This document shows, piece by piece, positions 30,558-48,704 of a DNA stretch of 64,000 nt. This stretch comes from Blastocatellia bacterium (GTDB lineage Bacteria; Acidobacteriota; Blastocatellia; UBA7656): the NCBI GenBank assembly GCA_045807725.1, contig JBJMGV010000132.1, positions 7,151 through 71,150 of the forward strand, given 5' to 3'. The notes under the pieces are model-generated. The model saw only the letters and a list, made by a program, of their open reading frames with translations. It searched no databases and was not told the DNA's origin. The stretch's first letter is position 1. Each line of letters starts with the position of its first letter. The position numbers and the translations under genes are program-made.

Positions 30558-33203
30558 TTACCTGACCGAGGGTTTCAAGGAATCAGGCGTCCGCAACCGT
30601 TGCATCGCCTCGTTGCACTGCTTGACCTTGCCGGCTAATTCCGCCGCCCTGTTGCTGTCGGTCGGTCGTAAGGCATTGCGTTTTTGCAGGTCGGAGAATA
30701 CCTCAAGCGCCTTCTGGTAAAGGTCGCGGGCCTCGGCCCATTGCTGCGAGCGAACACCGCCAGCGGCCTTTGAATCCGCAGCCAGCGTCGCATGGGCGAG
30801 CGCGACAATACTTTGACACAGCCCGAAGTTGCGGAGGAAAACCATGTTGCTGGGGTCTAGCGAAACCAGGCTCTGAAATTCGGCGAGCGCTTTCTCTCCG
30901 ATCTCCTTGCCGCGCTCAGCTTGCCCGGACTTCGACAGCGCTTCGGAGAGGTCGGCCTGCACCCCGGCCAGATCAAAAAGTGCCTGCTTGTTCGTTGGGT
31001 CTTTTGCCGACAGGTCAACGCGAATCGCCAGCGCCTTGTTCAGCGCGTCAAGGGCGCTATTGTAGTCGCCCGTCGCCGTCAAGGCTTCGCCGTAGTAGAA
31101 CTGCGCCATCGCCAGCGTGCGCCAGGCGCGGGCGTTGGTCGGGTCGGCGGTCGTCATCGCCTCTAGCAGGGCGATGGACCGGCGATAGCTGTTCAGCCCT
31201 TCCGTTCGATCCAAGACCCAGCCTCCGCCGAGTTTCATCGAGCAGGTGGCGACGCTTAAGCGCATGCGGATGTTGGCAGGGTCTCGATTGAGCATGTCTT
31301 CGCGGATGGCGAGCGCTTTGCGATAGCAGTTCATCGTGCTGTTGAGATCGGTTGTCCGGGTCAGGCCATCGCCGAGACACTCGTATGCTCTGGCGTATTC
31401 GTCACGAACTCCCACATCATCGGGATTGGCGTCGGCCAACTGCTCAAAGGTCTCCAGCGACCGGCGATAGTTTTCGATGCAGCCGGCGAGGTCGCCTTTC
31501 TGTTCGAGGATGTCGGCAATCGCGCGATAACTGAGGCCGAAACCGAGTTGTAATTCCTTGCCGGGAGCAGAGTGACTGAGCGATTCACGAATCGCCAGCG
31601 CTTTATGGTAGCTCGACATCGCTCCTTCCGTATCGCCGAGGTTTTGTGTGTAAGGGTTCCCCTGGATGTCGCCGACCCGATCATAAGCTGTTGCCAGTTC
31701 CGTTTGCAGAGTCGGGTCATCGCCCGATTCGCGCGCGAGACTATCCAGATATTCGAGCGCCCGCGTGACGAGCAACTGCCGTGTGGGCGTTGAGCCGGCA
31801 AGGTTCTGCACCGAGTCGTGAATCTCGAAGAGGAAAGAGTTGGCCAGCCGGCGGACATCATTGAAGCGTTGCTCGGCTTTCATCCGCTGGACGTGCGCAA
31901 TGTGCGCCTCCCACAACGTCGCAATGACGCCGGCCATAAGGGTGAGCAACACAAGCAGAGCCGCCGCTGCCCCGGCTTTGTGGCGGTGGACGAACTTTGA
32001 GGTGCGATAGGCGAAGGTGTCTTTGCGGGCGATGACCGGCAAGCCTTCGAGGTGGCGGCGTGTGTCTTCGCTGAATTGTTCGACCGACGAATAACGCCGC
32101 ACAGGTTCCTTGCGCATGGCCATGAGGATAATGTTGTCGAGATCGCCGCTCAGCACACGCCGCAGCTTCGCCGGTTGACTGTTGCGCGCGATGCTCACGG
32201 TTTCCGGGCGGATGATGGCCGAAGTGCCATCGGCCATCTCGACCTCCTCGATGCGGCTGATCGCATCTGACGGTCGCTGGGGTTCAGTCTCACAGATGAT
32301 TCGTTCGACTTCGCTCGGCAGCGGCGTCCTGAACTGGTAAGGGTGATGGCCGGTCAGTAATTTGTACAACAGAACGCCGAGCGAATAAACGTCCGAGGCG
32401 GTCGTGATGGGAAAGCCACGTACTTGCTCCGGGCTGGCGTAATCTCTCGTCATCAGCCGCATCGCCGTCATGGTCGGCGCAATCGTCTGCGGCGACATCT
32501 CCGGGTTGAGGAATTTGGCGATGCCGAAATCGAGCAGCTTCGGCTCGCCGTCTGAAGTCACCAGTATGTTCGAGGGCTTGAGGTCGCGGTGAACGATCAG
32601 GTTCTGATGGGCGTGCTGCACCGCCGCGCAGATCTTGCGGAACAAGTGCAAACGCTCGACCGTTGACAGCCGCGCGCCATCGCAGTAATCCAGCAGCGAC
32701 AGCCCTTCGATGTACTCCATCACGAAGTAGGGCAGGCCGTCTTCGGTGGTGCCGCCATCTACAAGTCGTGCGATGTTAGGATGGTTCAGCGAGGCCAGTA
32801 TCTGGCGCTCGTTGCGAAAGCGGCGCAGGATGTCTTCGGTGTCCATGCCGCGCTTGATCAGCTTGATGGCGACGCGCTTCTTGAACGTGTCATCGGCGCG
32901 CGTAGCCAGGTAGACCGCGCCCATGCCGCCACGCCCGATCTCGCGGATGATTTTGTAAGGGCCGATATGCTGGCCCGCAAGCGACGGACTCCGGTTTCCT
33001 TGCAGCGCCTTTAACACCGCTTCGACCGCAGGCGATTCAATGAAGCTGGCCGCTTCGTTATGGTGCGCGATCAATTGCTCGACCTCTTGTTGCAGCTCCG
33101 CGTCACCCGCGCAGGCGTCGGCCAGAAACGTCATGCGCTCGCCCTGATCGTGGTCGAGCGCCGCTTGAAACAGCTCTTTTGCGCGATGATAGCGATTCAT
33201 CAA
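30558..33203 (-). CDS. Ser/Thr protein kinase with C-terminal TPR array, partner of the adjacent ECF sigma factor
   Basis: N-terminal ~70-aa sigma-interaction-like helix (MMNRYHRAKELFQAALDHDQ...), kinase motifs (GRGGMGAVYLA, HRDLKPSNIL, DFGIAK), TM segment, more than 400 aa of TPR repeats. Confidence 0.9.
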   Translation of the reverse strand: MMNRYHRAKELFQAALDHDQGERMTFLADACAGDAELQQEVEQLIAHHNEAASFIESPAVEAVLKALQGNRSPSLAGQHIGPYKIIREIGRGGMGAVYLATRADDTFKKRVAIKLIKRGMDTEDILRRFRNERQILASLNHPNIARLVDGGTTEDGLPYFVMEYIEGLSLLDYCDGARLSTVERLHLFRKICAAVQHAHQNLIVHRDLKPSNILVTSDGEPKLLDFGIAKFLNPEMSPQTIAPTMTAMRLMTRDYASPEQVRGFPITTASDVYSLGVLLYKLLTGHHPYQFRTPLPSEVERIICETEPQRPSDAISRIEEVEMADGTSAIIRPETVSIARNSQPAKLRRVLSGDLDNIILMAMRKEPVRRYSSVEQFSEDTRRHLEGLPVIARKDTFAYRTSKFVHRHKAGAAAALLVLLTLMAGVIATLWEAHIAHVQRMKAEQRFNDVRRLANSFLFEIHDSVQNLAGSTPTRQLLVTRALEYLDSLARESGDDPTLQTELATAYDRVGDIQGNPYTQNLGDTEGAMSSYHKALAIRESLSHSAPGKELQLGFGLSYRAIADILEQKGDLAGCIENYRRSLETFEQLADANPDDVGVRDEYARAYECLGDGLTRTTDLNSTMNCYRKALAIREDMLNRDPANIRMRLSVATCSMKLGGGWVLDRTEGLNSYRRSIALLEAMTTADPTNARAWRTLAMAQFYYGEALTATGDYNSALDALNKALAIRVDLSAKDPTNKQALFDLAGVQADLSEALSKSGQAERGKEIGEKALAEFQSLVSLDPSNMVFLRNFGLCQSIVALAHATLAADSKAAGGVRSQQWAEARDLYQKALEVFSDLQKRNALRPTDSNRAAELAGKVKQCNEAMQRLRTPDSLKPSVR

Positions 33204-33298: not shown

Positions 33299-33913
33299 TT
33301 AGCCCCGCTTGATCTCCCGATAGAGCCATGCCTTTGCCCAGTTCCAGTCGCGCTTGACGGTCGCCGGTGAGATGTCGAGGACTTCCGCCGTCTCCTCAAT
33401 CGTTAGACCACCGAAGAATCGCAACTCGACAATGCGGCCTTGCTGCGGATCCATTTCGGTCAGGCTGGCCAGCGCGTCGTCCAGCGCCAGGAGGTCAAGG
33501 TCACGTTCCACCGGCACGGCCATCGCGTCGTCAAAGGATAACTTCTGCGCCCCGCCGCCACGCTTGGCGTAAAGGTGTGCGCGGGCATGGTCTACGAGGA
33601 TGCGCCGCATCATCTGGGCGGCGACGCCAAAGAACTGCGCGCGGTTCTGCCAGTTCACCTGCCGCTGATCAATGATCCTCAAATAGACCTCGTTGATCAG
33701 CGCCGTCGGTTGCAACGTGTGGCCCTGACGCTCGCGGCGCAGATAGCGCGCGGCGAGCCTGTGCAGCTCGTTGTAGACCAGCGGCATCAACTCGTCAAGC
33801 GCATACTCGTTGCCCTTGCACCAGTCCACCAGCAAGAGCGTGACATCACTTGGTGAAGATGACATTGATGCCTCTGATGTGAACGAATCAGCTCTGAAAG
33901 AGCCACTGAGCAT
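33299..33913 (-). CDS. ECF-type sigma-70 family sigma factor of the STK-associated group
   Basis: Region 2 motif LLVDWCKGNEYALDELMPLVYNELHRLA; region 4 HTH LTIEETAEVLDISPATVKRDW; gene order sigma then kinase. Confidence 0.9.
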   Translation of the reverse strand: MLSGSFRADSFTSEASMSSSPSDVTLLLVDWCKGNEYALDELMPLVYNELHRLAARYLRRERQGHTLQPTALINEVYLRIIDQRQVNWQNRAQFFGVAAQMMRRILVDHARAHLYAKRGGGAQKLSFDDAMAVPVERDLDLLALDDALASLTEMDPQQGRIVELRFFGGLTIEETAEVLDISPATVKRDWNWAKAWLYREIKRG

Positions 33914-34358
33914 ATACAGGGTACGGAAAGCCTGTCAATCACAATCTCCCTGCGCCTTGAGGAGCAGCCTGCCGGCGCAACGCGAGAGCCTGTGACCGCG
34001 TGAGCCGATTCAGAGTTTCTTCTCGCGTTATTGAAAGAGCAACATTGAAAGAGCAACAAAGAGGCCGGCTCACGGCGGCCAGAAGGAGAGCGTGAAGATG
34101 TCTGCGCAACCAGATGAAGAAGGATTAACCAATGGAAATCAACGAGCTATTTATCGTAACCGAAACCACATCGAACTCTGGCCAGGAGACGATTGAAATC
34201 ATTACTGCCTCGATTGAACCATCGCCACGCGCGCTGCCGAAAAATTGTGAGCCGGTCTGAGCTTTTCGGGATTCTTTTCTCGCGTTAGTTGGCTGAGGAC
34301 AAATGATGTCCTCAGGTTCAACGATCAAGCTCTTAACTATCATCAGAAGGAGATCACT

Positions 34359-36146
34359 ATGGAACGCATCGTCCTGAGGCATCTCAATGGCACGAAAGCA
34401 AATCAGGTTGAAGAATTTCCTCTCAACCACTTTCAGGAACTCACGATTGGTCGCGATCCGTCCTCGACCGTCAAGTATGACCCCGACCGCGATGATCTGG
34501 TCGGTCGCGCGCACGCCCGCATCGCTCAGGACGCAGCCGACCCGGCGCAGTTCTCGATCACCGACCTCGGCAGTCGCAACGGCACCTTCGTCAACAAGCA
34601 GCGCATCGTCGGCGGCGCGCGCATCAATCCCGGCGATGTGATTCAACTGGGGCCGGGCGGGCCAGAGTTTCAATTCGACCTTGAGCCGCGCCCCGAAAAT
34701 GCCATGCGCCAGACGCGCATTGCCGGTGGCGATGATGCCAGTTCGCTGCCGCCAACCCGCGAAGGAACGTTCAGCGCCATGGCTCCGTTGTCGCAATCGG
34801 CCAATGTCGCCACAGCGGCGGCGGGCGGCACGCGCGTCGGCAAAGCGACGGTCGAGCGCATGATCTCGCAGACCAAAGGCGAGTCGAACAAGGTCATGTT
34901 GATGGCCATCGGCGGCATCCTGATCGTCGTCGCTGTCGTCGCTGCCGCGCTCATCTACAAGTCGCGCGTTGATGCGCAGCGCACAGAGCAGCAGATCGCC
35001 AAGAGCGGACAGATGAACAGCGAGGAGATGGCGAAGTTAGGGTCGGGTCTCAGCTCTGTCAAAGAGCGCACGGCTGGTATGACGCCCGCCGAGATCGCTT
35101 CGAGCTTCACCGACGCGACGGTTTATATACAGGTTTCGTGGCAGCTCATCGAGAATAGCAGCGGCAACCCGCTCTTCCATCGTTACCTGCCCAACCAGTA
35201 CAAAGACAAAACCGGCAAGGTGCAACCCCTGGTCAATAATGGCAAGCCCTTTGTGGCGGCTTATCGGGCGGTGCAGACCGGCGACGGACAGGCGTTGGAG
35301 CCGGCCCTGACCACGGACTCAAACGCGCTCGGCCTGCCCATTGGCAAATCAATCACCGGCAGCGGTTTCTGCGTCACCAGTGACGGCTTCATCCTGACCA
35401 ACCTGCATGTGGCCGCGCCCTGGAGGATATTCTACCACTTTGACGACATAGCCTTTCCCGGCGTGCTGGTTGACGAGCGCGGCAACCCCGTCGCCGGGCA
35501 GGATGGGCAGCCTGTGGCGATCAGCCCGTTCCGCTGGATACCGGCAGACACCAAGCAATTCGGCGGCTCGCAACTCGGTCGTCCGTCTACCGAAGGGCGC
35601 AACGATTCGCTCTATGTCACCTTCCCGAAGACCGAGCTGCGTATCCCTGCCAAGCTGGCGCGCACCTCTGACCGCCACGACGCCGCGATGCTCAAGATAG
35701 ACATCCCGCAGCCGTTGAAGTACGTCGAGCTGAATGACAACTACGACACGATCAAGCCCGGCGACCCGGCCTTCGTGCTCGGCTATCCGGGCGGCTCGCC
35801 GCCGCAGGTCGCCGTCATCCGCTACAAGGCGAAGGGCGACTGGTATCAGCAGCCGCAGGTCGGCATTGTGCCGAATGCGACCTTGAGCGTCGGCTACATC
35901 TCGCGCACGCTGCGCGATCAAGAGGGCACGGGCGGCAAAGATGCGGTCTACAGCACCTTCGGCGACATCTACCAGTTGACCATCAACACGACCGGCGGCG
36001 GCAACAGCGGCGGCCCGGTCTTCGACGATCAAGGCCGCGTCATTGGCCTCTATTCCTATGGCCTGGGCAGCGACTTCCAGGCGTCGGGCGCAGTGCCGAT
36101 TCGCTTTGCCAAAGAACTGATGGGCATTACCCCTGTTGTAAAGTAG
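34359..36146 (+). CDS. FHA domain / TM / trypsin-like (S1) serine protease fusion protein
   Basis: N-terminal FHA (TIGRDPSSTVKYD...GSRNGTFVN), a central TM helix (LMAIGGILIVVAVVAAALIY), C-terminal chymotrypsin-fold motifs (GSGFCVTSDGFILTNLHVA; catalytic Ser in GGNSGGPVFD). The RBS aggag precedes the ATG. Confidence 0.8.
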   Translation: MERIVLRHLNGTKANQVEEFPLNHFQELTIGRDPSSTVKYDPDRDDLVGRAHARIAQDAADPAQFSITDLGSRNGTFVNKQRIVGGARINPGDVIQLGPGGPEFQFDLEPRPENAMRQTRIAGGDDASSLPPTREGTFSAMAPLSQSANVATAAAGGTRVGKATVERMISQTKGESNKVMLMAIGGILIVVAVVAAALIYKSRVDAQRTEQQIAKSGQMNSEEMAKLGSGLSSVKERTAGMTPAEIASSFTDATVYIQVSWQLIENSSGNPLFHRYLPNQYKDKTGKVQPLVNNGKPFVAAYRAVQTGDGQALEPALTTDSNALGLPIGKSITGSGFCVTSDGFILTNLHVAAPWRIFYHFDDIAFPGVLVDERGNPVAGQDGQPVAISPFRWIPADTKQFGGSQLGRPSTEGRNDSLYVTFPKTELRIPAKLARTSDRHDAAMLKIDIPQPLKYVELNDNYDTIKPGDPAFVLGYPGGSPPQVAVIRYKAKGDWYQQPQVGIVPNATLSVGYISRTLRDQEGTGGKDAVYSTFGDIYQLTINTTGGGNSGGPVFDDQGRVIGLYSYGLGSDFQASGAVPIRFAKELMGITPVVK

Positions 36147-36225
36147 ATAACAAAACTAACCGGGCGGCGTCCGCGCGGACGCTGCCACCTTTGCGCCCGG
36201 CTTCCTTATCGGTAAGAGAACGCTC

Positions 36226-37494
36226 ATGAAAAGCGCGGCGATGCTGAATTCCTCAATAGGCGAATACCGGCTGGTCGATTTTCTCGGCGCGGGCGGCATG
36301 GGCGAAGTCTACCGCGCCGTCCACGCCCGCACGGGCCGCGTCGTCGCCATCAAAACGCTCAGCCGTGTAAGCCGCAACCCGAACATGATCGAGCGGTTTC
36401 GCAACGAAGCGAGCATTCAGGCGCAACTGTGGCACCCGAGCATTGCCCGGCTCTACGACTTTGTCGAAAACGGCGAGCATCTCTGCATCATCATGGAGTA
36501 CCTGGATGGCGAGACGCTCGACCACCGCATACGCGCGGTCGGCCCTTTTCCTTTCGTCGAGACGCTCCTGATCTTTCGCGCCATCGTCGAGGCCATCAGC
36601 TACCTGCACGACAACGGCGTCGTGCATCGTGACATCAAGTCCAACAACGTCAAGCTGACCTCGAAGGGTGAAGTGAAGCTGCTGGACTTTGGCATCGCCA
36701 AGACCGGCACTTCGCCGCAATTGACCGCGCTCGGCGATGTCATCGGCACGTTTGAATACCTGTCGCCAGAGCAACTCACAGGCAGTTCTGCTGATGCCCG
36801 CTCGGACATCTGGGCGCTCGGCGTGCTGCTCTACGAAATGGTTTCAGGCCGCGTGCCATTCGATGCCACGACCATCGGGCGGCTCGTTGAACAGATATGT
36901 AAAGGCGACTACAAATCGCCATCACAACTCAACCCCGGCGTGCCGCGCGAAATCGAAGCGATCATCACCCGCTGCCTGAAGCGAAACCCAGCGGCGCGAT
37001 ACAGGTCGGCGCATGAGCTTTTAGACGATGTGCAACGAGCGATGACCGCGCTCGACCCGCAGGCCATCGAACCTGCGCCCGGCATCATTTCCTCGCCGGC
37101 CCCCTGGCTGAAAACCAACTGGCAGATGGCGACCATCGCCGCGATGGCGCTGATTATAGTCATCCTTATCGTCGCCCTGATGACGAGCGGCCCGGCGACA
37201 AGCGGCACGGCGACGATGCCGCAACCATCATCGCCCGCGCCCGCGCCGACACTAGCCGCCGCTCCGGCGACCGTTAGCAGTGAGATGCGCGTCGTGCGCG
37301 TCAATACCTTTGAAGGTCGCGCCGATGTTTACCGCGACGGCCAGCTTATCGGCTCGACGCCTTACGAAATCAGCGCGCCCCTCGGCGAGCGCGTGCGGCT
37401 GACGTTGAAGCGCGCCGGTTATCAGGATGAGCCGCTCGATTTCACGATCACCGAAAACAAGAAAGAGTACACCATCACGATGAAGCGGCTGTGA
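36226..37494 (+). CDS. Ser/Thr protein kinase with C-terminal PEGA domain
   Basis: GAGGMGEVYRA, HRDIKSNNV, DFGIAK; TM; C-terminal PEGA-like beta domain (VRVNTFEGRADVYRDGQLIGSTPYE). Confidence 0.9.
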   Translation: MKSAAMLNSSIGEYRLVDFLGAGGMGEVYRAVHARTGRVVAIKTLSRVSRNPNMIERFRNEASIQAQLWHPSIARLYDFVENGEHLCIIMEYLDGETLDHRIRAVGPFPFVETLLIFRAIVEAISYLHDNGVVHRDIKSNNVKLTSKGEVKLLDFGIAKTGTSPQLTALGDVIGTFEYLSPEQLTGSSADARSDIWALGVLLYEMVSGRVPFDATTIGRLVEQICKGDYKSPSQLNPGVPREIEAIITRCLKRNPAARYRSAHELLDDVQRAMTALDPQAIEPAPGIISSPAPWLKTNWQMATIAAMALIIVILIVALMTSGPATSGTATMPQPSSPAPAPTLAAAPATVSSEMRVVRVNTFEGRADVYRDGQLIGSTPYEISAPLGERVRLTLKRAGYQDEPLDFTITENKKEYTITMKRL

Positions 37495-37525: not shown

Positions 37526-38503
37526 GTGATCATGGTTACGCTATGGAAAAAACTGATGAGCCGGTGGTCGGGCACAGATGAATCTTCAACGGTCGCGGCG
37601 GAGCCGAGCCGGCCTGAGGTCATCGCGCAGACGGGCGAGCTGTCTCTGCCGAGCGCTGTGGTCCGCGACGGGCACGACTCCATCGCCCGCTACGAAGTCA
37701 TCGCGAGTCTGCTCACAGACATCGGCTGCCGCCGCAAAGTCAACGAAGACTCCGGGCGCTACGTCTATCCGCGCGATGAGCGGGTGCTGGCCGACAAGGG
37801 CTTGCTTGCCATTGTCGCTGATGGCATGGGCGGTCACTCTGCCGGCGACGTGGCGAGTCGCATCGCAACCGAAGTGATCAACCGCGTCTACTATGATGAC
37901 GACGCAGAGGCGGGTGAGGCGCTCAAACGCGCCTTCCGCGAGGCCAACCGGCAGATTTTCGAGGCCGCGCGAAACGACCGTGCGCTCGAAGGCATGGGTA
38001 CGACCTGCACGACGCTGGTGCTGCGCCAGGGCAAGGCCATCTGCGCGCACGTCGGCGACAGCCGCCTTTATCTGGTGCGCGACCGCAATATCTATGTGCT
38101 CACCGAAGACCATTCGGCGGTGATGGAGATGGTCAAGCGCGGCATGTTGACGCAAGGCGAAGCGCGCCACCACGCCGATAAGAATGTCATTCTGCGCGCG
38201 CTCGGCAGCCACGCCGACGTGCAGGTGACGGTCTGGAATGAAGCGCTACCGATCAGGGAAGGCGACCGTTTTCTGCTCTGCTCGGACGGTCTTTATGATC
38301 TCGTCGAGGATGAAGAGATCAAGCAAGCGGTGATCAGTCAAAGCCCGCACGCGGCCTGCGAGAGCTTGATCGAACTGGCCAAAGCGCGCGGCGGTTATGA
38401 CAACATCACGGTCGGCGTGCTCAGCGTGACGGCGGCGAGCAGCAGTGAAGCGCCGACGGCGCGCGCAACCCGCGAAGTGCAAGCGGCAAGCGGACTGGAG
38501 TAG
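37526..38503 (+). CDS. PP2C-family Ser/Thr protein phosphatase
   Basis: ADGMGGHSAGDVAS, GTTCTTL, LLCSDGL, GGYDNITV metal-binding/PP2C motifs. Confidence 0.9.
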   Translation: MIMVTLWKKLMSRWSGTDESSTVAAEPSRPEVIAQTGELSLPSAVVRDGHDSIARYEVIASLLTDIGCRRKVNEDSGRYVYPRDERVLADKGLLAIVADGMGGHSAGDVASRIATEVINRVYYDDDAEAGEALKRAFREANRQIFEAARNDRALEGMGTTCTTLVLRQGKAICAHVGDSRLYLVRDRNIYVLTEDHSAVMEMVKRGMLTQGEARHHADKNVILRALGSHADVQVTVWNEALPIREGDRFLLCSDGLYDLVEDEEIKQAVISQSPHAACESLIELAKARGGYDNITVGVLSVTAASSSEAPTARATREVQAASGLE

Positions 38504-38508
38504 CAGAA

Positions 38509-40158
38509 ATGATCGGGCGGCTGATCGGCAATTACAAAGTCCTCGAAAAGATCGGCGAAGGCGGCATGGGATCGGTCTGGCGCGGCGTTGACATCATGCT
38601 CGACCGCGAAGTCGCAATTAAAATGCTGCGGCCCGAACTGGCCAATGACCCGCAGATCGTCGAGCGATTCCGCGCCGAAGCCGTAACGCTGGCGCGGCTG
38701 AATCATCCGAACATCGCTATGCTCTACGCCTTCATTCGGCAAGCCAATGACTACTTCATGGTGATGGAATATGTGCGCGGTGAAACGTTGAGCCACGCCA
38801 TTTCGAGACTCGGGGCGATGCCCTGTGCGCAAGCCCTTGGGTTATTCTGCCAGGCATTGGAAGGCGTCCATCACGCGCATGAGATGGGCATCATTCACCG
38901 CGACCTCAAGCCGGCCAACGTCATGCTGACGCCCAACGGTTCGATCAAGGTGATGGACTTCGGCATCGCGCGGGCGCTGAGCGCCAGCCGTATGACGCGC
39001 ACGGGCCATCTGATCGGCACGCTTGAATACATGGCGCCGGAGTTGATTCAAGGGGCCGGCGGCGATGTGCGCTCGGACATCTACGCGCTGGGGTTATTGC
39101 TATACGAAATGCTGACGGGCCGCCTGCCGTTTGAAAGCGACAGCGATTACGAATTGATGCGCGCACAGGTCGAGGCCGCGCCGCCGCCGCCACGTCACTT
39201 CGCGCCGCACATTCCGCTCGACATCGAACAGGCATTGATGCGCGCGCTTGCGAAGCGGCCCGACGCGAGATTCCAAAGCGCCGCCGAGTTCCGCGCCGCG
39301 CTGCTCACATCCATTCCCGCGACTGGCCAGTTGCAGAGTCAGGCTCTCGCTAACGGCCCCCGGTTGAATGCCGCAAGCGCATCACTGGCAAGCGCGCCGT
39401 TGCCGGACAACCTGAAAGAGACACGGCTGGCAAACGATGGCGTGGCATCCTCGCTTGTTGCACCCGTCGCCCCACAGGCGACCGCAAGTCAAACGGGCCA
39501 GATGCCGACATCCGCCGAGCCTGTAATCAAAACCACACGATTGGGAGCCGAGGATGCGCCGCTACCCGCAGGCCAACAACACTGGCAAGCTCACCACGCC
39601 CAGGCCATTGGCTCGCCGCGCTCATCCGGCGGCGTCGTTCAAGTGGCGGGTGCAGCCGAGCCGGGGCGGAAATCGGGGAACGCCTTTGCGGAGATTTTAG
39701 GGAAGCTCGACTGGCGTCATTACGCGGGGTTTGGCGCACTATTGCTGGCGATTTTTAGCGTTCCCTTCTTGCTGGTGAGCAAGCCCGATCAGCGGCCTGC
39801 TTCGCAACCAGCCACGACGACGCGCCCGCAACCGACGACGGAATCGAATGCGACGACAGCGCCAACGTCGAAACCTGAGTCAGCGCCGCCATCAAAGCCG
39901 AGCAACGATCAACCCTTGCCACCGGTCTCTGGCAGCACGATATCTCCCGACACGTCGCCATCGCTGCCGCGACCCGGTCGCGTTCGTCGCTCAAGCTCTC
40001 AGCCCGATCATGGCGCGAAGCCGCCGGCGACCGACAGGGGAAACAACGACGGGAAGAAGGAAGAACAGGGCGGGCGGAAAGAAGAAAAGAAAGGCGGCAT
40101 CTTTCGCAAGCTGAAGAAGCTGAACCCGTTCAGTCACGGCGACAAAGACAAAGACTGA
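38509..40158 (+). CDS. Ser/Thr protein kinase with Pro/Ser/Thr-rich low-complexity C-terminus
   Basis: GEGGMGSVWRG, HRDLKPANVM, DFGIAR; TM segment; basic KKEEQGGRKEEKK tail. Confidence 0.9.
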   Translation: MIGRLIGNYKVLEKIGEGGMGSVWRGVDIMLDREVAIKMLRPELANDPQIVERFRAEAVTLARLNHPNIAMLYAFIRQANDYFMVMEYVRGETLSHAISRLGAMPCAQALGLFCQALEGVHHAHEMGIIHRDLKPANVMLTPNGSIKVMDFGIARALSASRMTRTGHLIGTLEYMAPELIQGAGGDVRSDIYALGLLLYEMLTGRLPFESDSDYELMRAQVEAAPPPPRHFAPHIPLDIEQALMRALAKRPDARFQSAAEFRAALLTSIPATGQLQSQALANGPRLNAASASLASAPLPDNLKETRLANDGVASSLVAPVAPQATASQTGQMPTSAEPVIKTTRLGAEDAPLPAGQQHWQAHHAQAIGSPRSSGGVVQVAGAAEPGRKSGNAFAEILGKLDWRHYAGFGALLLAIFSVPFLLVSKPDQRPASQPATTTRPQPTTESNATTAPTSKPESAPPSKPSNDQPLPPVSGSTISPDTSPSLPRPGRVRRSSSQPDHGAKPPATDRGNNDGKKEEQGGRKEEKKGGIFRKLKKLNPFSHGDKDKD

Positions 40159-40310: not shown

Positions 40311-43300
40311 ATGGACGAATACAGCGTAACTCAACCCACACTGCTGACATCGCGGCTGGCGTCGTTGAAACCCTTCGGCGGTTATGAGATTGAAGGGGAA
40401 CTCGGGCGCGGCGGCATGGGGGTCGTTTATCTGGCCCGCCAGGTTGAGCTGAACCGCCGGGTCGCGCTCAAGATGCTAACCGGCCACTACGGGGCGGACG
40501 AGCTGCGTCGGTTTCAGGAAGAAGCCGAGACAGCGGCGGGGCTGCATCACACCAACATCCTGCACATCTATGAAGTGGGCGAGTTTGAAGGCGCGCCGTT
40601 CTTCTCGATGGAATACATCGAGGGCGGCACGCTGGCAGATAGTCTGCGCAAAGCGTTGCCCTCGCCGCGTCAGGCTGCACAGTTGTTGATCCACATTGCT
40701 CGCGCGCTGCACTATGCTCATCAAAACGGCATCATCCATCGGGACATGAAACCGGCCAACGTGCTGCTCGACGCCGACGGCGTGCCGAAGGTTGCCGACT
40801 TCGGCATCGCGAAACGGCTGATGGATGACAGCCACCTGACACGTTCCGGCGCAGTGATTGGGACACCGACTTACATGGCTCCCGAACAGGCGAAAGGCAA
40901 TAGCCGGCACGTCGGGCCAACGGCGGATGTCTATTCACTGGGCGCGATTCTTTACGAGATGCTCGCGGGCCGCCCGCCTTTCCTGCCGGAAGACAGTGAG
41001 ACATCCATTACATTGCGTGTCTTGAACGAGGACCCGGTTTCGCCGGCATGGCACCGGCCAGAGATTCCACGCGACCTCGAAACGATCTGCCTGAAGTGCC
41101 TTGAGAAAGAGCCGCGCAACCGTTATGTGAGCGCAGCGGCATTGGCCGAAGACCTGCGCCGCTTTCTCGATGATGAATCGATTCTCGCGAGGCCGCCGAG
41201 CACCATCGGCAGCAGCATCAAGTGGGTGCGGCGGCACCCGTGGAAGTTTGTTGCGGTGGTGATGGTGCTGTTTCTGGTCGTCGCCGGCTCGGTGCGGCTC
41301 GCGCAGTGGGAGCTTTATCAGCGCCCGCATCTGGAATATGCATCGCTGGTTGATTGGACCAATGGCAGCCTTGAGCCTATCAAGAGGATTAGTTTGGAGA
41401 GCGGCTCACAGCGCGGCGGATACTTGCGGCTGACGCGGCGTGGCCGATACGGTCCCATCATCAAAGTCGAAGCCTTGAATGCGCGCGGCTACCCCGCCGT
41501 GCTGCGTCAAATAATGGTTGATGACATGCTGCCGGTCTACATCGAGCGTTTGATGGGCGCGCAGCCCTACTCCGAATCACGCCCGGAGACCAACATCGTC
41601 GAGCTGCTGTATGACGATAAAGATAACGCGGTGGAAGCGGTCGGGCGTGACCGCAACGCTCACATCAACTGGCGTATTCTCTACGACCATCGCAGCGACT
41701 CTGGCCCTTCAGGGCGCACGGCGCGGGCGCGCTTCGTTGACGCGCGCGGCTTTGATGCCGCCAGTCGCGGGGGCGCGTCGCAAATGGAATTCGAGCGCGA
41801 CGCTGCAGGCCACGATGTGAAGATTCGCTTCTTTAACAATTTCGGCAAGCCCGCCGCCAATGGTGAAGGCGTCTACGGCTGCACCCTCGAACGTGACGGC
41901 ACGGGCCACATCACCCGCCTGATCAACCTGGGGCCTGATGACCAGCCTGCGCCGAATCGTATAGGGCTGACCGAGTTCGCCATCCGTTGGGGGATAGAGA
42001 ACAATGGACGAAAAGAGAATTGGATAGAAATACGCGACGGCAATGGGCAGCCGACCTTGTGGAAGGGAATCGCCGCCTTCGTGTTTGAACTCGATGATAA
42101 GGGCAATGCGATGCGCTCGATCAATGTCGGCGCGGATGGGCAGCCGGTGCGCGATGCGGCAGCGCCCTGGTCGGCAATCGAACTGAAGCGCAACGAGCAT
42201 GACGAACTGACCCAGCGCATCTATCTCAAGGCCGACGCCGACGGCTCGCTCAAACAGATACTACAAAACGACATCAGCTACAACGACTTCGGCCACCCGT
42301 CAGAGATGAAAACGATAGGCGCGGGCGCAGGGTGGACGGCCTGGCAGCGCGACGAGAAGGGCAACATCACAGAGGAGAAGACGCTCGATGCCAACGGCCA
42401 GCCGGTCGCCAATGATAAAGGTTATGCGATCACCCGCTTCACCTACACGTCCGTGCCGCAGGGCTTTCGTGTCGAGCAGACCTACTTCGATGCGAACGGC
42501 GCGGAGACGTTTAACAGCGACGGCTATCATCGTTTGATTAACGAATACGATGTTGCCGGGGCGTTGCGGCAGATGGTTTATGCCGAATACGACCCGGCGC
42601 GGTTCAAGTACTATCGGTTTATCAGCGAGCCGGAATATGACCCGCAAAGCCGGCTTCGTCACATGATAAACCGCTACGAAGATGCTCAGGGACAGTTGGC
42701 CGCCAACGCCGGGCTGACCTTTATTGCCAGCGACGTTACTTACGATGATAACGGCAAAGTATTCGCCGAGTGGCGAACCTTCAGCGACCCGAAAGATTAT
42801 GGCGCGTCCTTCTTGCGCCTCGATACCGAGTGGCAAGCCAACGGCAAGATGAAGCGCCGTGTGCAGCAGTTCTGCGATGCCAATCGCCAGCCGCTATCTA
42901 CGCTTCCCAGTGGCTACGGCGCGCACAAAGAAGAAGAGTTCGATGCGAACGAACAGCGGCAGCGCGTCTATGAAACCGGGTTCGACGAGAACATGGTTGG
43001 GTTCAGCACGCGTGAAGCAAAGTTTTCCGGCGGCAATCTGCAAAGCGTCACGCACACGCGCAGCAATGGAACTGTTCTCAACTCTGTGCGCGTCATCATC
43101 ACCAGCATCACGCCGTCGCCGGAGCAACCGAAATCGGCGGCGCTGAAGCCCGGCGATCAACTGGTCGCCGCCAACGGCAAGCCGGTGACAAGCGCGCAGG
43201 CATGGGTCGCCGCAGGGAACTTCCCCGGCGGCTGGCTGGAAGTCTTGCGTGAAGGCCAGCGCCTTCGCATTGATGGTTTTGGCCCCGGCGATCTAGGGTT

Positions 43301-43334
43301 TCTACTACAAGACCGCGCCCCGGCAGCGCCCTAG
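40311..43334 (+). CDS. Ser/Thr protein kinase with large extracytoplasmic repeat region and C-terminal PDZ-like domain
   Basis: Kinase motifs (GRGGMGVVYLA, HRDMKPANVL, DFGIAK), a TM helix (VAVVMVLFLVVAGSV), ~650-aa region of degenerate DANGQP/DxNGxP beta-repeats, PDZ-like terminal segment (LKPGDQLVAANGKPV). Confidence 0.85.
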   Translation: MDEYSVTQPTLLTSRLASLKPFGGYEIEGELGRGGMGVVYLARQVELNRRVALKMLTGHYGADELRRFQEEAETAAGLHHTNILHIYEVGEFEGAPFFSMEYIEGGTLADSLRKALPSPRQAAQLLIHIARALHYAHQNGIIHRDMKPANVLLDADGVPKVADFGIAKRLMDDSHLTRSGAVIGTPTYMAPEQAKGNSRHVGPTADVYSLGAILYEMLAGRPPFLPEDSETSITLRVLNEDPVSPAWHRPEIPRDLETICLKCLEKEPRNRYVSAAALAEDLRRFLDDESILARPPSTIGSSIKWVRRHPWKFVAVVMVLFLVVAGSVRLAQWELYQRPHLEYASLVDWTNGSLEPIKRISLESGSQRGGYLRLTRRGRYGPIIKVEALNARGYPAVLRQIMVDDMLPVYIERLMGAQPYSESRPETNIVELLYDDKDNAVEAVGRDRNAHINWRILYDHRSDSGPSGRTARARFVDARGFDAASRGGASQMEFERDAAGHDVKIRFFNNFGKPAANGEGVYGCTLERDGTGHITRLINLGPDDQPAPNRIGLTEFAIRWGIENNGRKENWIEIRDGNGQPTLWKGIAAFVFELDDKGNAMRSINVGADGQPVRDAAAPWSAIELKRNEHDELTQRIYLKADADGSLKQILQNDISYNDFGHPSEMKTIGAGAGWTAWQRDEKGNITEEKTLDANGQPVANDKGYAITRFTYTSVPQGFRVEQTYFDANGAETFNSDGYHRLINEYDVAGALRQMVYAEYDPARFKYYRFISEPEYDPQSRLRHMINRYEDAQGQLAANAGLTFIASDVTYDDNGKVFAEWRTFSDPKDYGASFLRLDTEWQANGKMKRRVQQFCDANRQPLSTLPSGYGAHKEEEFDANEQRQRVYETGFDENMVGFSTREAKFSGGNLQSVTHTRSNGTVLNSVRVIITSITPSPEQPKSAALKPGDQLVAANGKPVTSAQAWVAAGNFPGGWLEVLREGQRLRIDGFGPGDLGFLLQDRAPAAP

Positions 43335-43420
43335 TTGTGCGCCAAACTGCCGACGCCTGGAAATCAGTACGGCTTAACGACCCGCATGCCTTTGAGCATC
43401 CTGCGGGCCAGGAGGAATCT

Positions 43421-44056
43421 ATGTCTGACTTATTAGTTAAATCGCCGGGAAGGCAGGCTTCGGCTAAAGACGAGATCGGCCTGCTCGAAGTCCTGAGCCT
43501 GTTAGTCGAAACCGGGAAGGTCAAGACCACTGCCGACCTGCTCAAGTACGCGACGCAGTATGGCGCTCCTGAAGCCGAAGAGCGACTGCGCGTTCTTGAA
43601 GCAGAGAACATTCCCCTGGACCTCTCGTTCGATGCGATCAGCGTGCACCTGCGCCTGCTCGCCTATAAACGGAACAGTCAACTGCTGGCGAGCTGTCGCG
43701 GTCAAAAGGTAGGACTCATTCTTCCCCTGCCACCGCACCTGCCGACCTTGTTTCTTCCTGTCACCGAAGCGACCTATCTGGAGCCGGGCCAGATGCCTGC
43801 GCACGGCGCGCTACACGAGTTTTCGGAACAGGCGGTGAAAGGTACGCGCGCTTGCCGCGCGAAAGCGCAGGAGATGCAGGTGCTCGTCTTTGAAGCCTTC
43901 CGCGACGGCGGCGAGCTGTTCGCAGAGATGGCGGTAGCCGACGTGCTGGAGCCGAAGATGCTGCCGGGTGACATCCGCCTGATCGCTCATCTGCGGCCAC
44001 ACCGCAATCCCGGCGATGTTCAGATTCAACCGACAACGGAGGTTTCGTTCATATGA
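43421..44056 (+). CDS. Hypothetical protein
   Basis: ORF with a GGAGGA RBS 7 bp upstream of ATG 43421 (the ORF track starts at TTG 43337); no recognisable domain. Confidence 0.5.
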   Translation: MSDLLVKSPGRQASAKDEIGLLEVLSLLVETGKVKTTADLLKYATQYGAPEAEERLRVLEAENIPLDLSFDAISVHLRLLAYKRNSQLLASCRGQKVGLILPLPPHLPTLFLPVTEATYLEPGQMPAHGALHEFSEQAVKGTRACRAKAQEMQVLVFEAFRDGGELFAEMAVADVLEPKMLPGDIRLIAHLRPHRNPGDVQIQPTTEVSFI

Positions 44057-48568: not shown

Positions 48569-48704
48569 AATTCCGCCCTCTATGGTGATCAAGCCGAACG
48601 ATTCCGGGTCCTGCATCAGGCTTCAATCTATAACGCGAGAACGGTTGGCGAATCGGCTCATCCTTCAGTGATGATGAATGACTATGACCTTCCATTCGTC
48701 CGCG

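Follow-up and report, generated by a model that had tools for sequence, protein, structure and literature searches.

Bacterial proteases of the HtrA type and operons encoding Hanks-type kinases together with a phosphatase and a phospho-reader are the described systems closest to the gene considered here. DegS of Escherichia coli and AlgW of Pseudomonas aeruginosa consist of an N-terminal transmembrane (TM) anchor, a periplasmic chymotrypsin-fold protease with a His/Asp/Ser triad and a PDZ sensor, and are tied, genomically or functionally, to ECF sigma signaling. HtrA proteases are allosterically activated by the binding of substrates or peptides and by oligomerization. Operons in which an FHA reader is encoded together with one or more Hanks kinases and a PP2C phosphatase are found in actinobacteria (fhaA-fhaB(fipA)-pstP-...-pknA-pknB) and in the T6SS of P. 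aeruginosa (Fha1-PpkA-PppA). In Rv1747 of Mycobacterium tuberculosis, the kinase PknF phosphorylates the linker residues T152 and T210, providing a precedent for an FHA domain that binds phosphorylated Thr residues in the disordered linker of the same protein (PMC8339232). Sigma factors of the ECF43 type are characterized by an adjacent kinase, by the lack of an anti-sigma factor and by a Thr-containing motif in region sigma2.2 (PMC8999054, PMC13147305). An FHA-FHA-Trypsin protein of Bacteroides thetaiotaomicron, NP_811686.1, appeared in a domain-architecture survey from 2008 (PMC2605481), and this catalogue entry was all that our literature searches for a characterized FHA-protease fusion, or for a link between FHA domains and HtrA proteases, brought to light.

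The window, i.e., the whole stretch of 64,000 nucleotides analyzed here, encodes a protein in which an FHA domain is joined through the membrane to a trypsin-like protease (Table 1). A first-pass annotation of the sequence had proposed this succession of FHA domain, single TM helix and protease, and both Pfam, where FHA (PF00498) and Trypsin_2 lie above their gathering cut-offs, and hydropathy agree with it. Residues 179-200 form the sole hydrophobic segment (Kyte-Doolittle score 2.96), which in the AF2 model is spanned by a helix at residues 176-215. The protein carries no signal peptide, one TM segment is found in 80 of its 82 wider relatives, and the N-side flank of this segment is the more positively charged one in 70/82, a positive-inside bias that supports the proposed cytoplasmic location of the FHA domain. 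The protease accordingly lies outside the cytoplasm as claimed, although it is to be considered periplasmic rather than extracellular, the phyla concerned being diderm. The gene product is thus bitopic, crossing the inner membrane once: the FHA domain and a disordered linker of ~65 residues lie in the cytoplasm, and the single TM helix leads to a periplasmic protease that has an HtrA fold and no PDZ domain.

Table 1. Coordinates of the genes, domains, motifs and promoter-like elements discussed in the text (positions in the window).
Feature	Position	Strand	Basis or remark
STK-TPR kinase, 881 aa, paired with ECF sigma	30558..33203	-	Pfam
ECF sigma (PF07638 / TIGR02999), HTLQPTAL in sigma2.2, divergently transcribed	33299..33913	-	both models above cut-offs
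Promoter-like element P1, GAGCC-N17-CGCGTTA, ECF-type -35/-10 spacing	34002..34030	+	exact match
Promoter-like element P2, GAGCT-N17-CGCGTTA, one mismatch	34259..34287	+	ends 72 nt 5' of start codon
Ribosome-binding site AAGGAG	34347..34352	+	6 nt 5' of ATG, read in sequence
FHA-TM-protease gene, whole ORF, 595 aa, ATG start, stop codon included	34359..36146	+	FHA, disordered linker, TM helix, trypsin-fold protease in order
Cytoplasmic FHA domain, residues 1-110	34359..34688	+	Pfam, GarA alignment, conservation, AF2
Linker T-R motif 1, RQ-T119-R120-IA	34707..34724	+	family consensus [KR][AP]-T-R-[VILM][AG]
Linker T-R motif 2, PP-T133-R134-EG	34749..34766	+	family consensus P[PA]-T-R-[VEM][GA]
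Juxtamembrane box VGKATVERMI, residues 160-169	34836..34865	+	T164 and R167 in 82/82
Single TM helix, residues 179-200	34893..34958	+	hydropathy, AF2, relatives
Periplasmic HtrA-like (S1C-fold) protease domain, residues 243-595, no PDZ	35085..36143	+	Pfam, AF2, Foldseek
Triad codon H350	35406-35408	+	motif reading and alignment
Triad codon D441	35679-35681	+	motif reading and alignment
Triad codon S550	36006-36008	+	motif reading and alignment
STK1, Hanks kinase, TM (residues 301-319), periplasmic PEGA	36226..37494	+	Pfam, topology
PP2C phosphatase, cytoplasmic	37526..38503	+	Pfam
PP2C C-terminal tail T-R motif, RA-T315-R316-EV	38462-38479	+	T 63/63, R 62/63 orthologs
STK2, Hanks kinase, long disordered cytoplasmic linker, TM (residues 406-424), disordered periplasmic tail	38509..40158	+	Pfam, topology
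STK2 linker T-R motif KETRLA	39415-39432	+	cytoplasmic linker
STK2 linker T-R motif KTTRLG	39529-39546	+	cytoplasmic linker
Third STK	40311-43334		downstream of STK2; Pfam

The protease domain is matched by Pfam Trypsin_2 at residues 334-564 (E 8.4e-20). The GGNSGGPV motif noticed earlier does contain the catalytic Ser, S550, which together with H350 (in TNLHV) and D441 (in DAAMLK) aligns with the Ser, His and Asp of MucD. The triad is intact, not only here but also among 114 close relatives (H 114/114, D 114/114, S 113/114), and is invariant or nearly so in the 82 wider relatives. In the AF2 model, pLDDT is mostly above 85-90 throughout this domain, with ~65-80 around residues 480-510, and the best Foldseek matches are AlgW, HtrA1, DegP and DegS, with target-normalized TM-scores of 0.7-0.77 obtained against chains consisting of the protease domain only. 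The chymotrypsin fold and His-Asp-Ser triad of HtrA and DegP-DegQ-DegS (MEROPS S1C) are therefore both recognizable, whereas the C-terminal PDZ domain, of which HtrA family members have at least one, does not appear in a Pfam scan at E<=1, and the chain of the model ends ~30 residues past the last protease strand. The curated HtrA model TIGR02037 gives 46.9 bits against a cut-off of 416, the HhoA/HtrA models give 32-34 bits against cut-offs of 450-470, and no NCBIfam model passes its own cut-off with this protein. Judging from the model, the protease fold is HtrA-like, but without PDZ.

The fusion had been thought uncommon, which turns out not to be the case. An identical protein, from a Blastocatellia MAG, is already present in NCBI, and a search of 1.84 billion representatives at E<=1e-30 yields 605 clusters, formed at 50% identity, for the family. 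Its members are encoded by 421 stretches of species-representative genomes from five phyla (Acidobacteriota, Gemmatimonadota, Abditibacteriota, Armatimonadota, Rhodothermales). The FHA domain is also a constant companion of the protease: when the protease domain alone was used as query, every complete protein among the top 120 matches carried FHA, and other N-terminal partners, e.g., a fused kinase, were absent from the matches listed. The sole variation of architecture among these listed matches is the presence of one or two FHA domains (two in P0145, P0153 and P0185) or of a longer linker. The family is widespread, and the fusion is not rare.

The location of the gene between an ECF sigma/STK pair and three further STKs plus a PP2C had been read correctly, as Pfam analysis of the neighbors agrees, but only part of this kinase-rich neighborhood is conserved. 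The order FHA-protease, STK1 (PEGA), PP2C, STK2 is co-linear in 54/55 loci across phyla, and STK1 directly follows the FHA-protease gene in 70 of 72 loci. STK1 is absent in L040 and apparently also in L042, where the protease is retained. The conserved partners are STK1, PP2C and STK2; the third STK lies outside the conserved core, and the ECF/STK-TPR pair accompanies a subset only. The four core genes are on the same strand with intergenic gaps of 79, 31 and 5 nt, and the FHA-protease is the operon's only FHA protein according to Pfam on the neighbors, so that Hanks kinases, PP2C and FHA occur here as an operonic module with conserved synteny. Between the protease gene and STK1, the spacer contains a GC-rich hairpin (36163-36186) that we do not regard as a terminator, because its stability is unexceptional compared with shuffled sequences (z = -0.9) and a T-tract is lacking. 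Note also that a known anti-phage defense system was considered and rejected: PADLOC gave only generic kinase-domain matches (PD-T4-6, mad6) and weak trypsin-domain matches, and the chromosomal synteny is kept across phyla.

The FHA domain itself is clearly recognized by Pfam (residues 29-98, E 1.1e-14, 55.1 bits against a cut-off of 20.7), has GarA as its best FHA sequence match in the PDB, and is modeled by AF2 as a beta-sandwich over residues 3-109 (pLDDT ~85-90), FHA domains being beta-sandwiches of 11 strands. Its peptide-binding loops are the most conserved region of the whole protein. Of the residues that form a phospho-Thr pocket, Gly-Arg of the b3-b4 loop (G31-R32) and Asn-Gly of the b6-b7 loop (within S72-R73-N74-G75-T76) are invariant, His (H52) is nearly so, and R50 is retained in 79 of the 82 wider relatives, whereas the phosphate-contacting Ser of the Ser-x-x-His motif in the b4-b5 loop is replaced by Gly49, both here and in 113/114 close relatives. 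The canonical Ser is found at this position in 11/82 wider relatives. Mutation of the phosphate-contacting Ser abolishes phospho-Thr binding in model FHA domains. From its sequence, the domain thus appears not fully canonical, and because Gly49 replaces this Ser, its binding to phosphopeptides may be weak or unusual.

A short motif consisting of Thr followed by Arg recurs in the disordered parts of the module. In the linker of the FHA-protease, where AF2 pLDDT falls below 50, two such motifs stand out from an otherwise variable sequence, T and R each being kept in 80/82 sequences in motif 1, and T in 81/82 and R in 79/82 in motif 2. At the juxtamembrane box, AF2 predicts a short helix (residues 165-171). 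The motif of the STK2 linker keeps T in 49/52 and R in 45/52 sequences, and the tail of PP2C carries a further example. The strict T-R pattern can be recognized in most protease linkers (94%), in a similar share of the cytoplasmic linkers of STK2 (92%) and in 63% of the tails of PP2C. In the control regions, namely the juxtamembrane and periplasmic parts of STK1 and the periplasmic tails of STK2, its frequency is only 7-8% (8% for the latter), and in motif-bearing segments that had been shuffled it is about 3-5%. Window-wide, five of the six matches to the pattern fall within the protease, STK2 and PP2C, against an expectation of ~1.2 in total; this count is to some degree circular, the same proteins being the source of the pattern. 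Scanning of the STK1 juxtamembrane part and of the periplasmic parts of STK1 and STK2 for conserved cleavage or docking motifs revealed nothing apart from the PEGA core. Rather than serving FHA docking, the T-R motif could be a recognition site for the kinases or the phosphatase, or be unrelated to phosphorylation.

The neighboring ECF sigma factor shares the published features of the ECF43 group: an STK gene is adjacent, an anti-sigma-like gene was not found by Pfam among the scanned neighbors, and the acidic sigma2.2 motif is replaced by a Thr motif, HTLQPTAL, which is conserved in 12 linked sigma orthologs. By these features, its sequence is typical of a kinase-activated, ECF43-like sigma factor. 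An ECF gene falls inside the retrieved stretch in 13 of 81 non-redundant loci, in four arrangements, and co-occurs with the STK-TPR gene in L001, L005, L007, L009, L033, L074, L077, L079 and L082. The promoter-like P1 pattern matches the window twice, against an expectation of 0.08, and elements of this type precede the FHA-protease gene in 14/75 loci, where ~2.6 are expected; P2 aligns with a conserved CGCGTTA block upstream of orthologous genes. In L001 and L005, a P1-type element is present in front of the ECF gene as well as of the FHA-protease gene. Within the window, none faces the ECF gene at up to 2 mismatches, a sigma70-like promoter being found there instead. Because the element upstream of the operon also precedes the sigma gene in relatives, the module probably belongs to the regulon of the ECF43-like sigma in this genome and its close relatives.

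Taken together, we propose that the FHA-protease is the phospho-threonine reader and effector of the four-gene module FHA-TM-protease, STK1-PEGA, PP2C and STK2, a reading to which we give an even chance. Because the FHA-protease keeps its operon with two kinases and a phosphatase, cytoplasmic kinase signaling and periplasmic proteolysis are probably coupled. Such a coupling had been suggested at the outset; while it continues to be inferred, it is strengthened by the near-obligate synteny with STK1, PP2C and STK2, and by the T-R motif common to protease, STK2 and PP2C. In the proposed mechanism, the co-operonic Hanks kinases would phosphorylate the Thr of the T-R motifs, i.e., T119 and T133 of the protease linker and those of the STK2 linker and PP2C tail, and the FHA domain would dock on the resulting pT-R sites. 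The invariant acidic loop (D41...D45-D46) beside the phosphate pocket (R32, R50, S72-N74) is a candidate reader of the Arg at +1, a preference that, to our knowledge, is not among the described FHA specificities. Each protease molecule combines a single reader with two or more sites and would, on phosphorylation, cluster with further copies of itself, with STK2 and with the phosphatase, much as proposed for Rv1747 of M. tuberculosis with its FHA domains and linker. The oligomeric state of the periplasmic HtrA-like domain would depend on this clustering, and with it the domain's activity or location; such inside-out control would replace the periplasmic PDZ sensor of DegS/AlgW, with PP2C resetting the system. 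How clustering in the cytoplasm would be transmitted by a single TM helix to the protease in the periplasm is a matter of conjecture. Among possible substrates, the nearest candidates are the periplasmic portions of the two kinases, namely the PEGA domain of STK1 and the tail of STK2.

Other readings of the locus have to be weighed against this proposal. An artefact, be it a gene pair fused by a frameshift or a dead protease, has a negligible probability: the two domains are encoded by a single ORF without frameshift, full-length and with its N-terminus (MERIVLRHL) and C-terminus kept across hundreds of genomes, and the triad is essentially invariant in the alignments of relatives, so both objections fail. 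The topology, an N-terminal TM anchor followed by a periplasmic HtrA-fold domain with AlgW as best structural match, together with the adjacent ECF sigma gene, might suggest a DegS/AlgW-like site-1 protease that cuts a membrane anti-sigma factor and frees the neighboring sigma by regulated intramembrane proteolysis. However, a PDZ domain is missing, no anti-sigma-like gene occurs among the scanned neighbors, the sigma factor belongs to a type that phosphorylation activates directly, no anti-sigma factor being involved, and an ECF gene is absent from the vicinity of most family members, which makes this reading highly improbable. We also consider it rather unlikely that the FHA domain is a phospho-independent scaffold like that of T3SS YscD/PrgH, with the protease performing housekeeping quality control of the envelope and sharing the operon incidentally. 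Gly49 at the phosphate-contacting position and a sub-threshold match to Pfam Yop-YscD_cpl (29 bits against a cut-off of 33.2) would fit, but R32, S72, N74 and T76 are invariant, R50 and H52 are likewise retained, and members of the same orthologous family have the canonical Ser. In addition, the near-obligate synteny with two kinases and a PP2C across phyla, and the confinement of conserved Thr motifs to cytoplasmic disordered regions, argue against it.

Two further alternatives keep the link to the kinases and differ in the direction or target of signaling. The protein could be an outside-in sensor, whose HtrA-like domain binds or cleaves unfolded or damaged envelope proteins, oligomerizes and gathers FHA-docked kinases for trans-autophosphorylation, with the ECF43-like sigma as output and a logic like that of IRE1/PERK. 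Within the core module, no other periplasmic domain comes near the protease part (~390 residues) in size, STK1 having a PEGA domain of ~70 residues and STK2 a disordered tail. The protease fold matches HtrA proteases with their allosteric activation, and the module is linked to the kinase-activated sigma in several arrangements. Against this sensor role, catalysis would be needless for a pure sensor, yet the triad is invariant (DegS, however, is both sensor and protease), and an ECF gene accompanies only the minority of loci given above; we regard it as doubtful. Alternatively, the FHA domain might tether the protease to the pT-R sites of STK2 so that the ectodomain of STK1 (PEGA) or STK2 is clipped and signaling is reset by ectodomain shedding. 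STK1 with its PEGA ectodomain adjoins the protease gene almost everywhere, and STK2 combines conserved cytoplasmic T-R motifs with a long, protease-accessible, disordered periplasmic tail. However, this feedback scheme leaves unexplained the two T-R sites in the protease's own linker and the one in the PP2C tail, no conserved cleavage site shows up on the periplasmic side of either kinase, and the protease persists where STK1 is missing; we judge it unlikely. The reader-effector proposal can be extended to a trans-envelope device, in which a pT-R docking code would assemble STK2, PP2C and the HtrA-like protease into a phosphorylation-dependent signalosome, such that cytoplasmic phosphorylation gates periplasmic proteolysis and, in reverse, the protease senses unfolded proteins and drives kinase clustering and the ECF43-type sigma. 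We put this extension forward tentatively, as a possibility only.

Bacterial Hanks-type kinase signaling counts many kinases and few known outputs, above all in soil phyla rich in kinases such as Acidobacteriota and Gemmatimonadota. The present family offers a defined and conserved output, an enzyme across the membrane that is hard-wired to a phospho-reader and encoded with the writers and the eraser. If the coupling is true, periplasmic proteolysis would be controlled from the cytoplasm, or periplasmic damage reported to cytoplasmic kinases, without the PDZ sensors or anti-sigma cleavage cascades of DegS/AlgW. Relatives are labeled FHA / S1-C protease in the source databases, and the FHA plus trypsin architecture has been catalogued since 2008, so these are already known; the conservation of the T-R motif, the ECF-type promoter-like element, the Thr-type neighboring sigma and Gly49 of the FHA domain are new findings. 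The analysis yields three candidate phosphosites in the protease, a T-R motif common to kinase and phosphatase, and a candidate promoter element linking the operon to a kinase-activated sigma. With hundreds of clusters in five phyla, a curated family model and a name would improve annotation, the current labels being 'serine protease Do' or 'trypsin-like peptidase domain-containing protein'.

The comparison with known systems can now be made more precise. Like DegS and AlgW, the FHA-protease has an N-terminal TM anchor, a periplasmic protease with the same fold and triad, and a genomic or functional tie to ECF sigma signaling, but in place of their PDZ sensor it has ~175 cytoplasmic residues of FHA domain and linker, its sequence identity to them is only 14-17%, extensive insertions specific to the family separate His from Asp (91 residues) and Asp from Ser (109 residues), and the scanned neighbors encode no anti-sigma substrate. 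With the actinobacterial and T6SS modules it shares the operonic association of Hanks kinases, PP2C and FHA reader, and FhaB/FipA, a small membrane-anchored FHA protein, is the top NCBIfam match to its FHA part (49 bits against a cut-off of 125). Differently from these modules, the reader is here covalently joined across the membrane to a protease, RodA/PBP or T6SS genes are lacking, and the phyla are others (Acidobacteriota, Gemmatimonadota, Abditibacteriota and more). Rv1747, an ABC transporter with FHA domains, and GarA/OdhI likewise carry an FHA domain and disordered Thr phospho-acceptor sites in one polypeptide; the output here is a periplasmic protease instead of a transporter or an inhibitor of a metabolic enzyme, the site motif is T-R, and the phosphate-contacting Ser is Gly in this lineage. 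EcfP-PknT of Vibrio parahaemolyticus and EcfK-PknS of Xanthomonas citri resemble the neighboring sigma in their sigma2.2 Thr motif (STTA/QTTA versus HTLQPTAL), in the adjacent Hanks kinase and in the lack of an anti-sigma factor, a comparison that concerns the sigma neighbor and not the protease, the studied ECF43 regulons having no reported FHA-protease. Finally, NP_811686.1 of B. thetaiotaomicron, a catalogue entry without function and compared by architecture only, likewise unites FHA and trypsin-like domains in one protein.

The FHA-protease is read from a single uninterrupted ORF that starts with ATG, 6 nt downstream of an AAGGAG ribosome-binding site, and both of its domains score well above the Pfam gathering thresholds, so the fusion of an FHA and a trypsin-like domain in one gene, proposed in the first-pass annotation, is borne out. 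The GGNSGGPV motif cited there is present, with S550 as its catalytic serine, and alignment to the HtrA-type protease MucD matches H350, D441 and S550 with the complete His/Asp/Ser triad. In the two alignments used for conservation counts (one of 114 close, the other of 82 wider relatives), His is kept in 114/114 and 81/82 sequences, Asp in 114/114 and 82/82, and Ser in 113/114 and 82/82; judged from these counts, catalysis is clearly under selection in the family.

Coordinates of the features discussed (window nucleotides, unless marked as FHA-protease residues or as a relative's locus)
Feature	Position	Strand	Remarks
STK with TPR repeats (STK-TPR)	30558-33203	opposite	881 aa; upstream of FHA-protease gene
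ECF sigma	33299-33913	opposite	upstream of FHA-protease gene
Sigma70-like promoter	33909-33938	-	TTGACA-18-TATGCT
Element P1	34002-34030		exact GAGCC-N17-CGCGTTA
Small ORF	34098-34196	+	32 aa
Element P2	34259-34287		one mismatch; 3' end 72 nt before FHA-protease ATG
FHA-protease ORF	34359-36146	+	595 aa
FHA (Pfam)	residues 29-98		55 bits
FHA beta-sandwich	residues 3-109		AlphaFold2
Disordered linker	residues 117-175		AlphaFold2, pLDDT <50
Linker T-R site 1	T119		[KR][AP]-T119-R-[VILM][AG]; T 80/82, R 80/82
Linker T-R site 2	T133		P[PA]-T133-R-[VEM][GA]; T 81/82, R 79/82
Long helix with TM segment inside	residues 176-215		AlphaFold2
Hydrophobic segment	residues 179-200		strong, only one
Protease domain	residues 243-595		AlphaFold2, mostly confident (pLDDT mainly >85-90, dip ~480-510)
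Trypsin_2 (Pfam)	residues 334-564		72 bits
Catalytic motifs	H350, D441, S550		TNLH350V, D441AAMLK, GGNS550GGPV
Hairpin	36163-36186	+	10 bp, GC-rich
STK1	36226-37494	+	C-terminal PEGA domain; downstream
PP2C	37526-38503	+	downstream
PP2C C-terminal tail T-R site			[RP][EA]-T-R-E-[VLA]-E; T 63/63, R 62/63
STK2	38509-40158	+	downstream
STK2 linker T-R site			[KR]E-T-R-[LIVM][GA]; T 49/52, R 45/52
Third STK	40311-43334	+	1007 aa; downstream
ORF without family match	43337-44056	+	239 aa
Metallophosphoesterase-like gene	47357-48415	+
Third exact element copy	48631-48659	-
Methyltransferase-like gene	48705-50000	-
Post-STK2 extension, locus L002	15487-18326
Post-STK2 extension, locus L003	15469-18249
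Exact element copies, locus L001	19166-19194; 21621-21649	+

An AlphaFold2 model built from the 114-sequence alignment (mean pLDDT 79.7) runs from the FHA beta-sandwich through the linker and the long helix to a short helical stalk and the protease domain. The best PDB matches of the latter are AlgW, HtrA1, DegP, DegQ and DegS (Foldseek; target-normalised TM-score 0.7-0.77 against protease-only chains, 14-17% identity), and its predicted fold places it with the HtrA-type enzymes. Neither Pfam nor the model contains a PDZ domain, and the C-terminus lies about 30 residues past the last protease strand. His-Asp and Asp-Ser are 91 and 109 residues apart; both spacings are much shorter in DegS, which points to family-specific insertions. 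The protein has no signal peptide, one TM segment is found in 80/82 wider relatives, and the N-side flank is the more positive one in 70/82 (mean +2.3 vs +0.85), so the FHA domain is assigned to the cytoplasm. Since the host phyla are diderm, the protease would be periplasmic; the cytoplasmic FHA domain, single TM helix and protease across the membrane of the first-pass annotation are retained, while its extracellular placement is not. Alignments and model together show a bitopic protein with FHA inside the cytoplasm and a periplasmic, PDZ-less HtrA-fold protease with an intact triad.

The identical protein is entered at NCBI as 'trypsin-like peptidase domain-containing protein [Blastocatellia bacterium]', and the best 120 database matches are essentially all full-length FHA+Trypsin_2 proteins (50-78% identity), several labelled 'FHA protein / S1-C subfamily serine protease' by JGI. 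Searched exhaustively with a profile, 1.84 billion representatives yielded 605 clusters at E<=1e-30, with end-to-end matches in nearly all of the best 150, and a one-genome-per-species scan returned 421 stretches encoding a relative, the best 80 of which match over their full length (42-62% identity). They belong to Acidobacteriota (Blastocatellia, Pyrinomonadaceae, Chloracidobacterium, Bryobacterales, Solibacteraceae), Gemmatimonadota, Abditibacteriota (a complete genome among them), Armatimonadota and Rhodothermales. When the query was cut down to the protease domain, the complete sequences among the best 120 matches were all FHA-fused; the only architecture variants seen had two FHA domains or an extended linker. 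On these counts the fusion, described as uncommon at first pass, is an old one that seems to be obligate and that soil phyla commonly carry. Only in the literature is it rare, where our search found nothing beyond a 2008 survey naming one FHA-FHA-Tryp protein with no function given (PMC2605481), and no curated NCBIfam model captures it. Note also that four loci (L011, L022, L025, L052) on MAG contigs titled 'uncultured Clostridia bacterium' carry typical members (~51-52% identity) in a Blastocatellia-like operon; their titles look like taxonomic mis-assignments of bins.

Pfam also recovers the neighbourhood as first described, with an ECF sigma/STK pair on one side and three STKs plus PP2C on the other. 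From the gene tables of three distant members and a tblastn survey of non-redundant loci, the gene order is FHA-protease, STK1 (kinase-TM-PEGA), PP2C, STK2: STK1 lies directly 3' in 70/72 loci with at least 1 kb downstream, and all three genes are co-linear in 54/55 loci with at least 3.5 kb, the exception being a Gemmatimonadaceae locus without STK1 only. The gaps in the window are 79, 31 and 5 nt. Its two domains are apparently always fused, and the FHA-protease gene near-obligately shares an operon with two Hanks kinases and PP2C. Each of STK1 and STK2 spans the membrane once, and PP2C is soluble; being the operon's only FHA protein, the FHA-protease is the only reader beside two writers and an eraser.

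This universal core does not include the third STK or the ECF/STK-TPR pair. The third STK has a single TM segment (residues 313-331), and its periplasmic region of ~675 residues matches nothing in Pfam or NCBIfam; the 239-aa ORF, also outside the core, begins 2 nt past its stop. In many Blastocatellia loci STK2 is followed by an unannotated 378-397-aa protein and an STK of ~540 aa; the window is without this extension, and the 1007-aa STK occupies its position. The FHA-protease/STK1 spacer holds a hairpin (GGCGGCGUCC...GGACGCUGCC) that could be an attenuator or processing site; it lacks a T-tract, and the 96-nt stretch around it is no more stable than shuffled sequence (z = -0.9).

Three operon proteins share sharply conserved Thr-Arg islands within otherwise unalignable disordered cytoplasmic segments, namely the FHA-protease linker, the STK2 linker (two copies in the window, KETRLA and KTTRLG) and the PP2C tail. 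In an alignment-free count, the share of segments with TR[LIVME][GAVLS] is 94% for protease linkers, 92% for STK2 cytoplasmic linkers and 63% for PP2C tails, vs 7-8% for STK1 juxtamembrane, STK1 periplasmic and STK2 periplasmic-tail segments and ~3-5% for shuffled motif-bearing segments. A slightly wider pattern gave 6 matches in the window's 47 ORFs (~1.2 expected), 5 of them in these three proteins, a count with some circularity, the pattern having been derived from the same proteins. Since the motif is confined to the cytoplasmic side and its Thr is invariant, this newly reported motif is read most simply as a phospho-acceptor and/or FHA-docking site common to the three proteins. Directly next to the TM helix of the FHA-protease lies another invariant box, VGKAT164VER167MI.

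Conservation along the protein peaks in the FHA domain, whose invariant residues (G31-R32, D41/D45-D46-L-V-G49-R50, S72-R73-N74-G75-T76, Q96-x-G-x-G-G-P-E) cluster in what we take, from known structures, to be the phosphopeptide-binding loops of canonical FHA domains. By alignment to GarA, Gly49 is the counterpart of the phosphate-contacting Ser of 'SxxH'. This position is Gly in 113/114 close relatives and the canonical Ser in 11/82 wider ones, including inspected Bryobacterales, Abditibacteriota and Rhodothermales examples, so some members have a fully canonical pocket. Gly49 has the look of a derived state that left the neighbouring Arg50 in place, and phospho-Thr binding by this FHA-protease is likely but not assured; that its FHA domain is a phospho-independent scaffold seems improbable to us.

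We give an even chance to a mechanism in which the operon's Hanks kinases would phosphorylate the T-R sites and the FHA domain would bind them, in cis or trans, recruiting the protease to STK2 and PP2C and cross-linking protease molecules; the resulting shift in oligomeric state or location would govern proteolysis in the periplasm, and PP2C would reverse this control. A precedent is Rv1747, whose linker threonines are phosphorylated by PknF and bound by its own FHA domains (PMC8339232). It is unlikely that the protease domain acts as an outside-in sensor, and we likewise doubt that the protease sheds a kinase ectodomain as feedback. A DegS-like site-1 cleavage of an anti-sigma factor is very improbable, because there is neither a PDZ domain nor, among the neighbours scanned, an anti-sigma gene, and the sigma is of an anti-sigma-independent type. 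A role of the module in defence found no support.

This sigma is of the PF07638/TIGR02999 type and carries HTLQPTAL at the sigma2.2 position, where ordinary ECF sigmas have an acidic DAED and kinase-activated ECF43 has STTA/QTTA with a phosphorylated Thr (PMC8999054, PMC13147305). All 12 linked orthologs amenable to alignment keep this Thr. An ECF gene, alone or accompanied by STK-TPR, lies inside 13/81 non-redundant loci in four arrangements: the divergent one seen in the window; a same-strand position immediately 5'; a same-strand 5' position shared with STK-TPR (Gemmatimonadota); or a downstream position. That the linkage survives rearrangement argues for a functional tie between the operon and a phospho-activated sigma, which is newly reported here.

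A conserved element, GAGCC-N17-CGCGTTA, lies 5' of FHA-protease genes. Two relatives' loci (L001, L005) carry two copies back to back, one toward the ECF gene and the other toward the protease operon; a copy facing its own gene is the usual autoregulation signature of ECF sigmas. In 14/75 loci (~2.6 expected) the 350 nt 5' of the protease gene contain the element; it is exact in 10 of those 14, and 8 of the 10 are Pyrinomonadaceae loci with no ECF gene inside the fetched locus. We infer that it is the promoter recognised by the neighbouring sigma, and the operon is probably transcribed by this adjacent kinase-activated sigma in this lineage. No copy facing the ECF gene was found in the window; a sigma70-like promoter there overlaps the first ATG of the ECF ORF. 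Met17 (ATG at 33865) is probably the true start, since the Pfam match begins at residue 22 and the L001 ortholog has 187 aa. The small ORF between P1 and P2 (MSAQPDEEGLTNGNQRAIYRNRNHIELWPGDD) has a good ribosome-binding site, AAGGAGAG. Because L001 and L005 have a single protease-facing copy and a shorter leader, the window leader seems to contain an insertion or duplication of ~260 nt. The third copy (GAGCCGATTC...TTCTCGCGTTA), nearly identical to P1, is intergenic between the methyltransferase-like gene and the convergent metallophosphoesterase-like gene, and would drive a small RNA, small ORF or antisense transcript. L001 has two more exact copies, one 5' of a DUF4190 gene and the other 5' of the gene that follows an M48 peptidase, which suggests that the element governs a small envelope-related regulon.

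The architecture is already visible in databases and one catalogue paper and is covered by no curated family; the fusion by itself is unsurprising to a domain-architecture specialist. Its broad conservation, together with the T-R code shared by three proteins and the link to a phospho-activated sigma, allows a concrete trans-envelope signalling hypothesis to be tested directly. Without a PDZ domain and with scores far below the family cut-offs, the FHA-protease falls outside the strict HtrA family; its likeness is a hybrid one, in one half to the membrane-anchored HtrA proteases DegS and AlgW, and in the other to the FHA readers of STK/PP2C operons (FhaB/FipA, Fha1, Rv1747, GarA).
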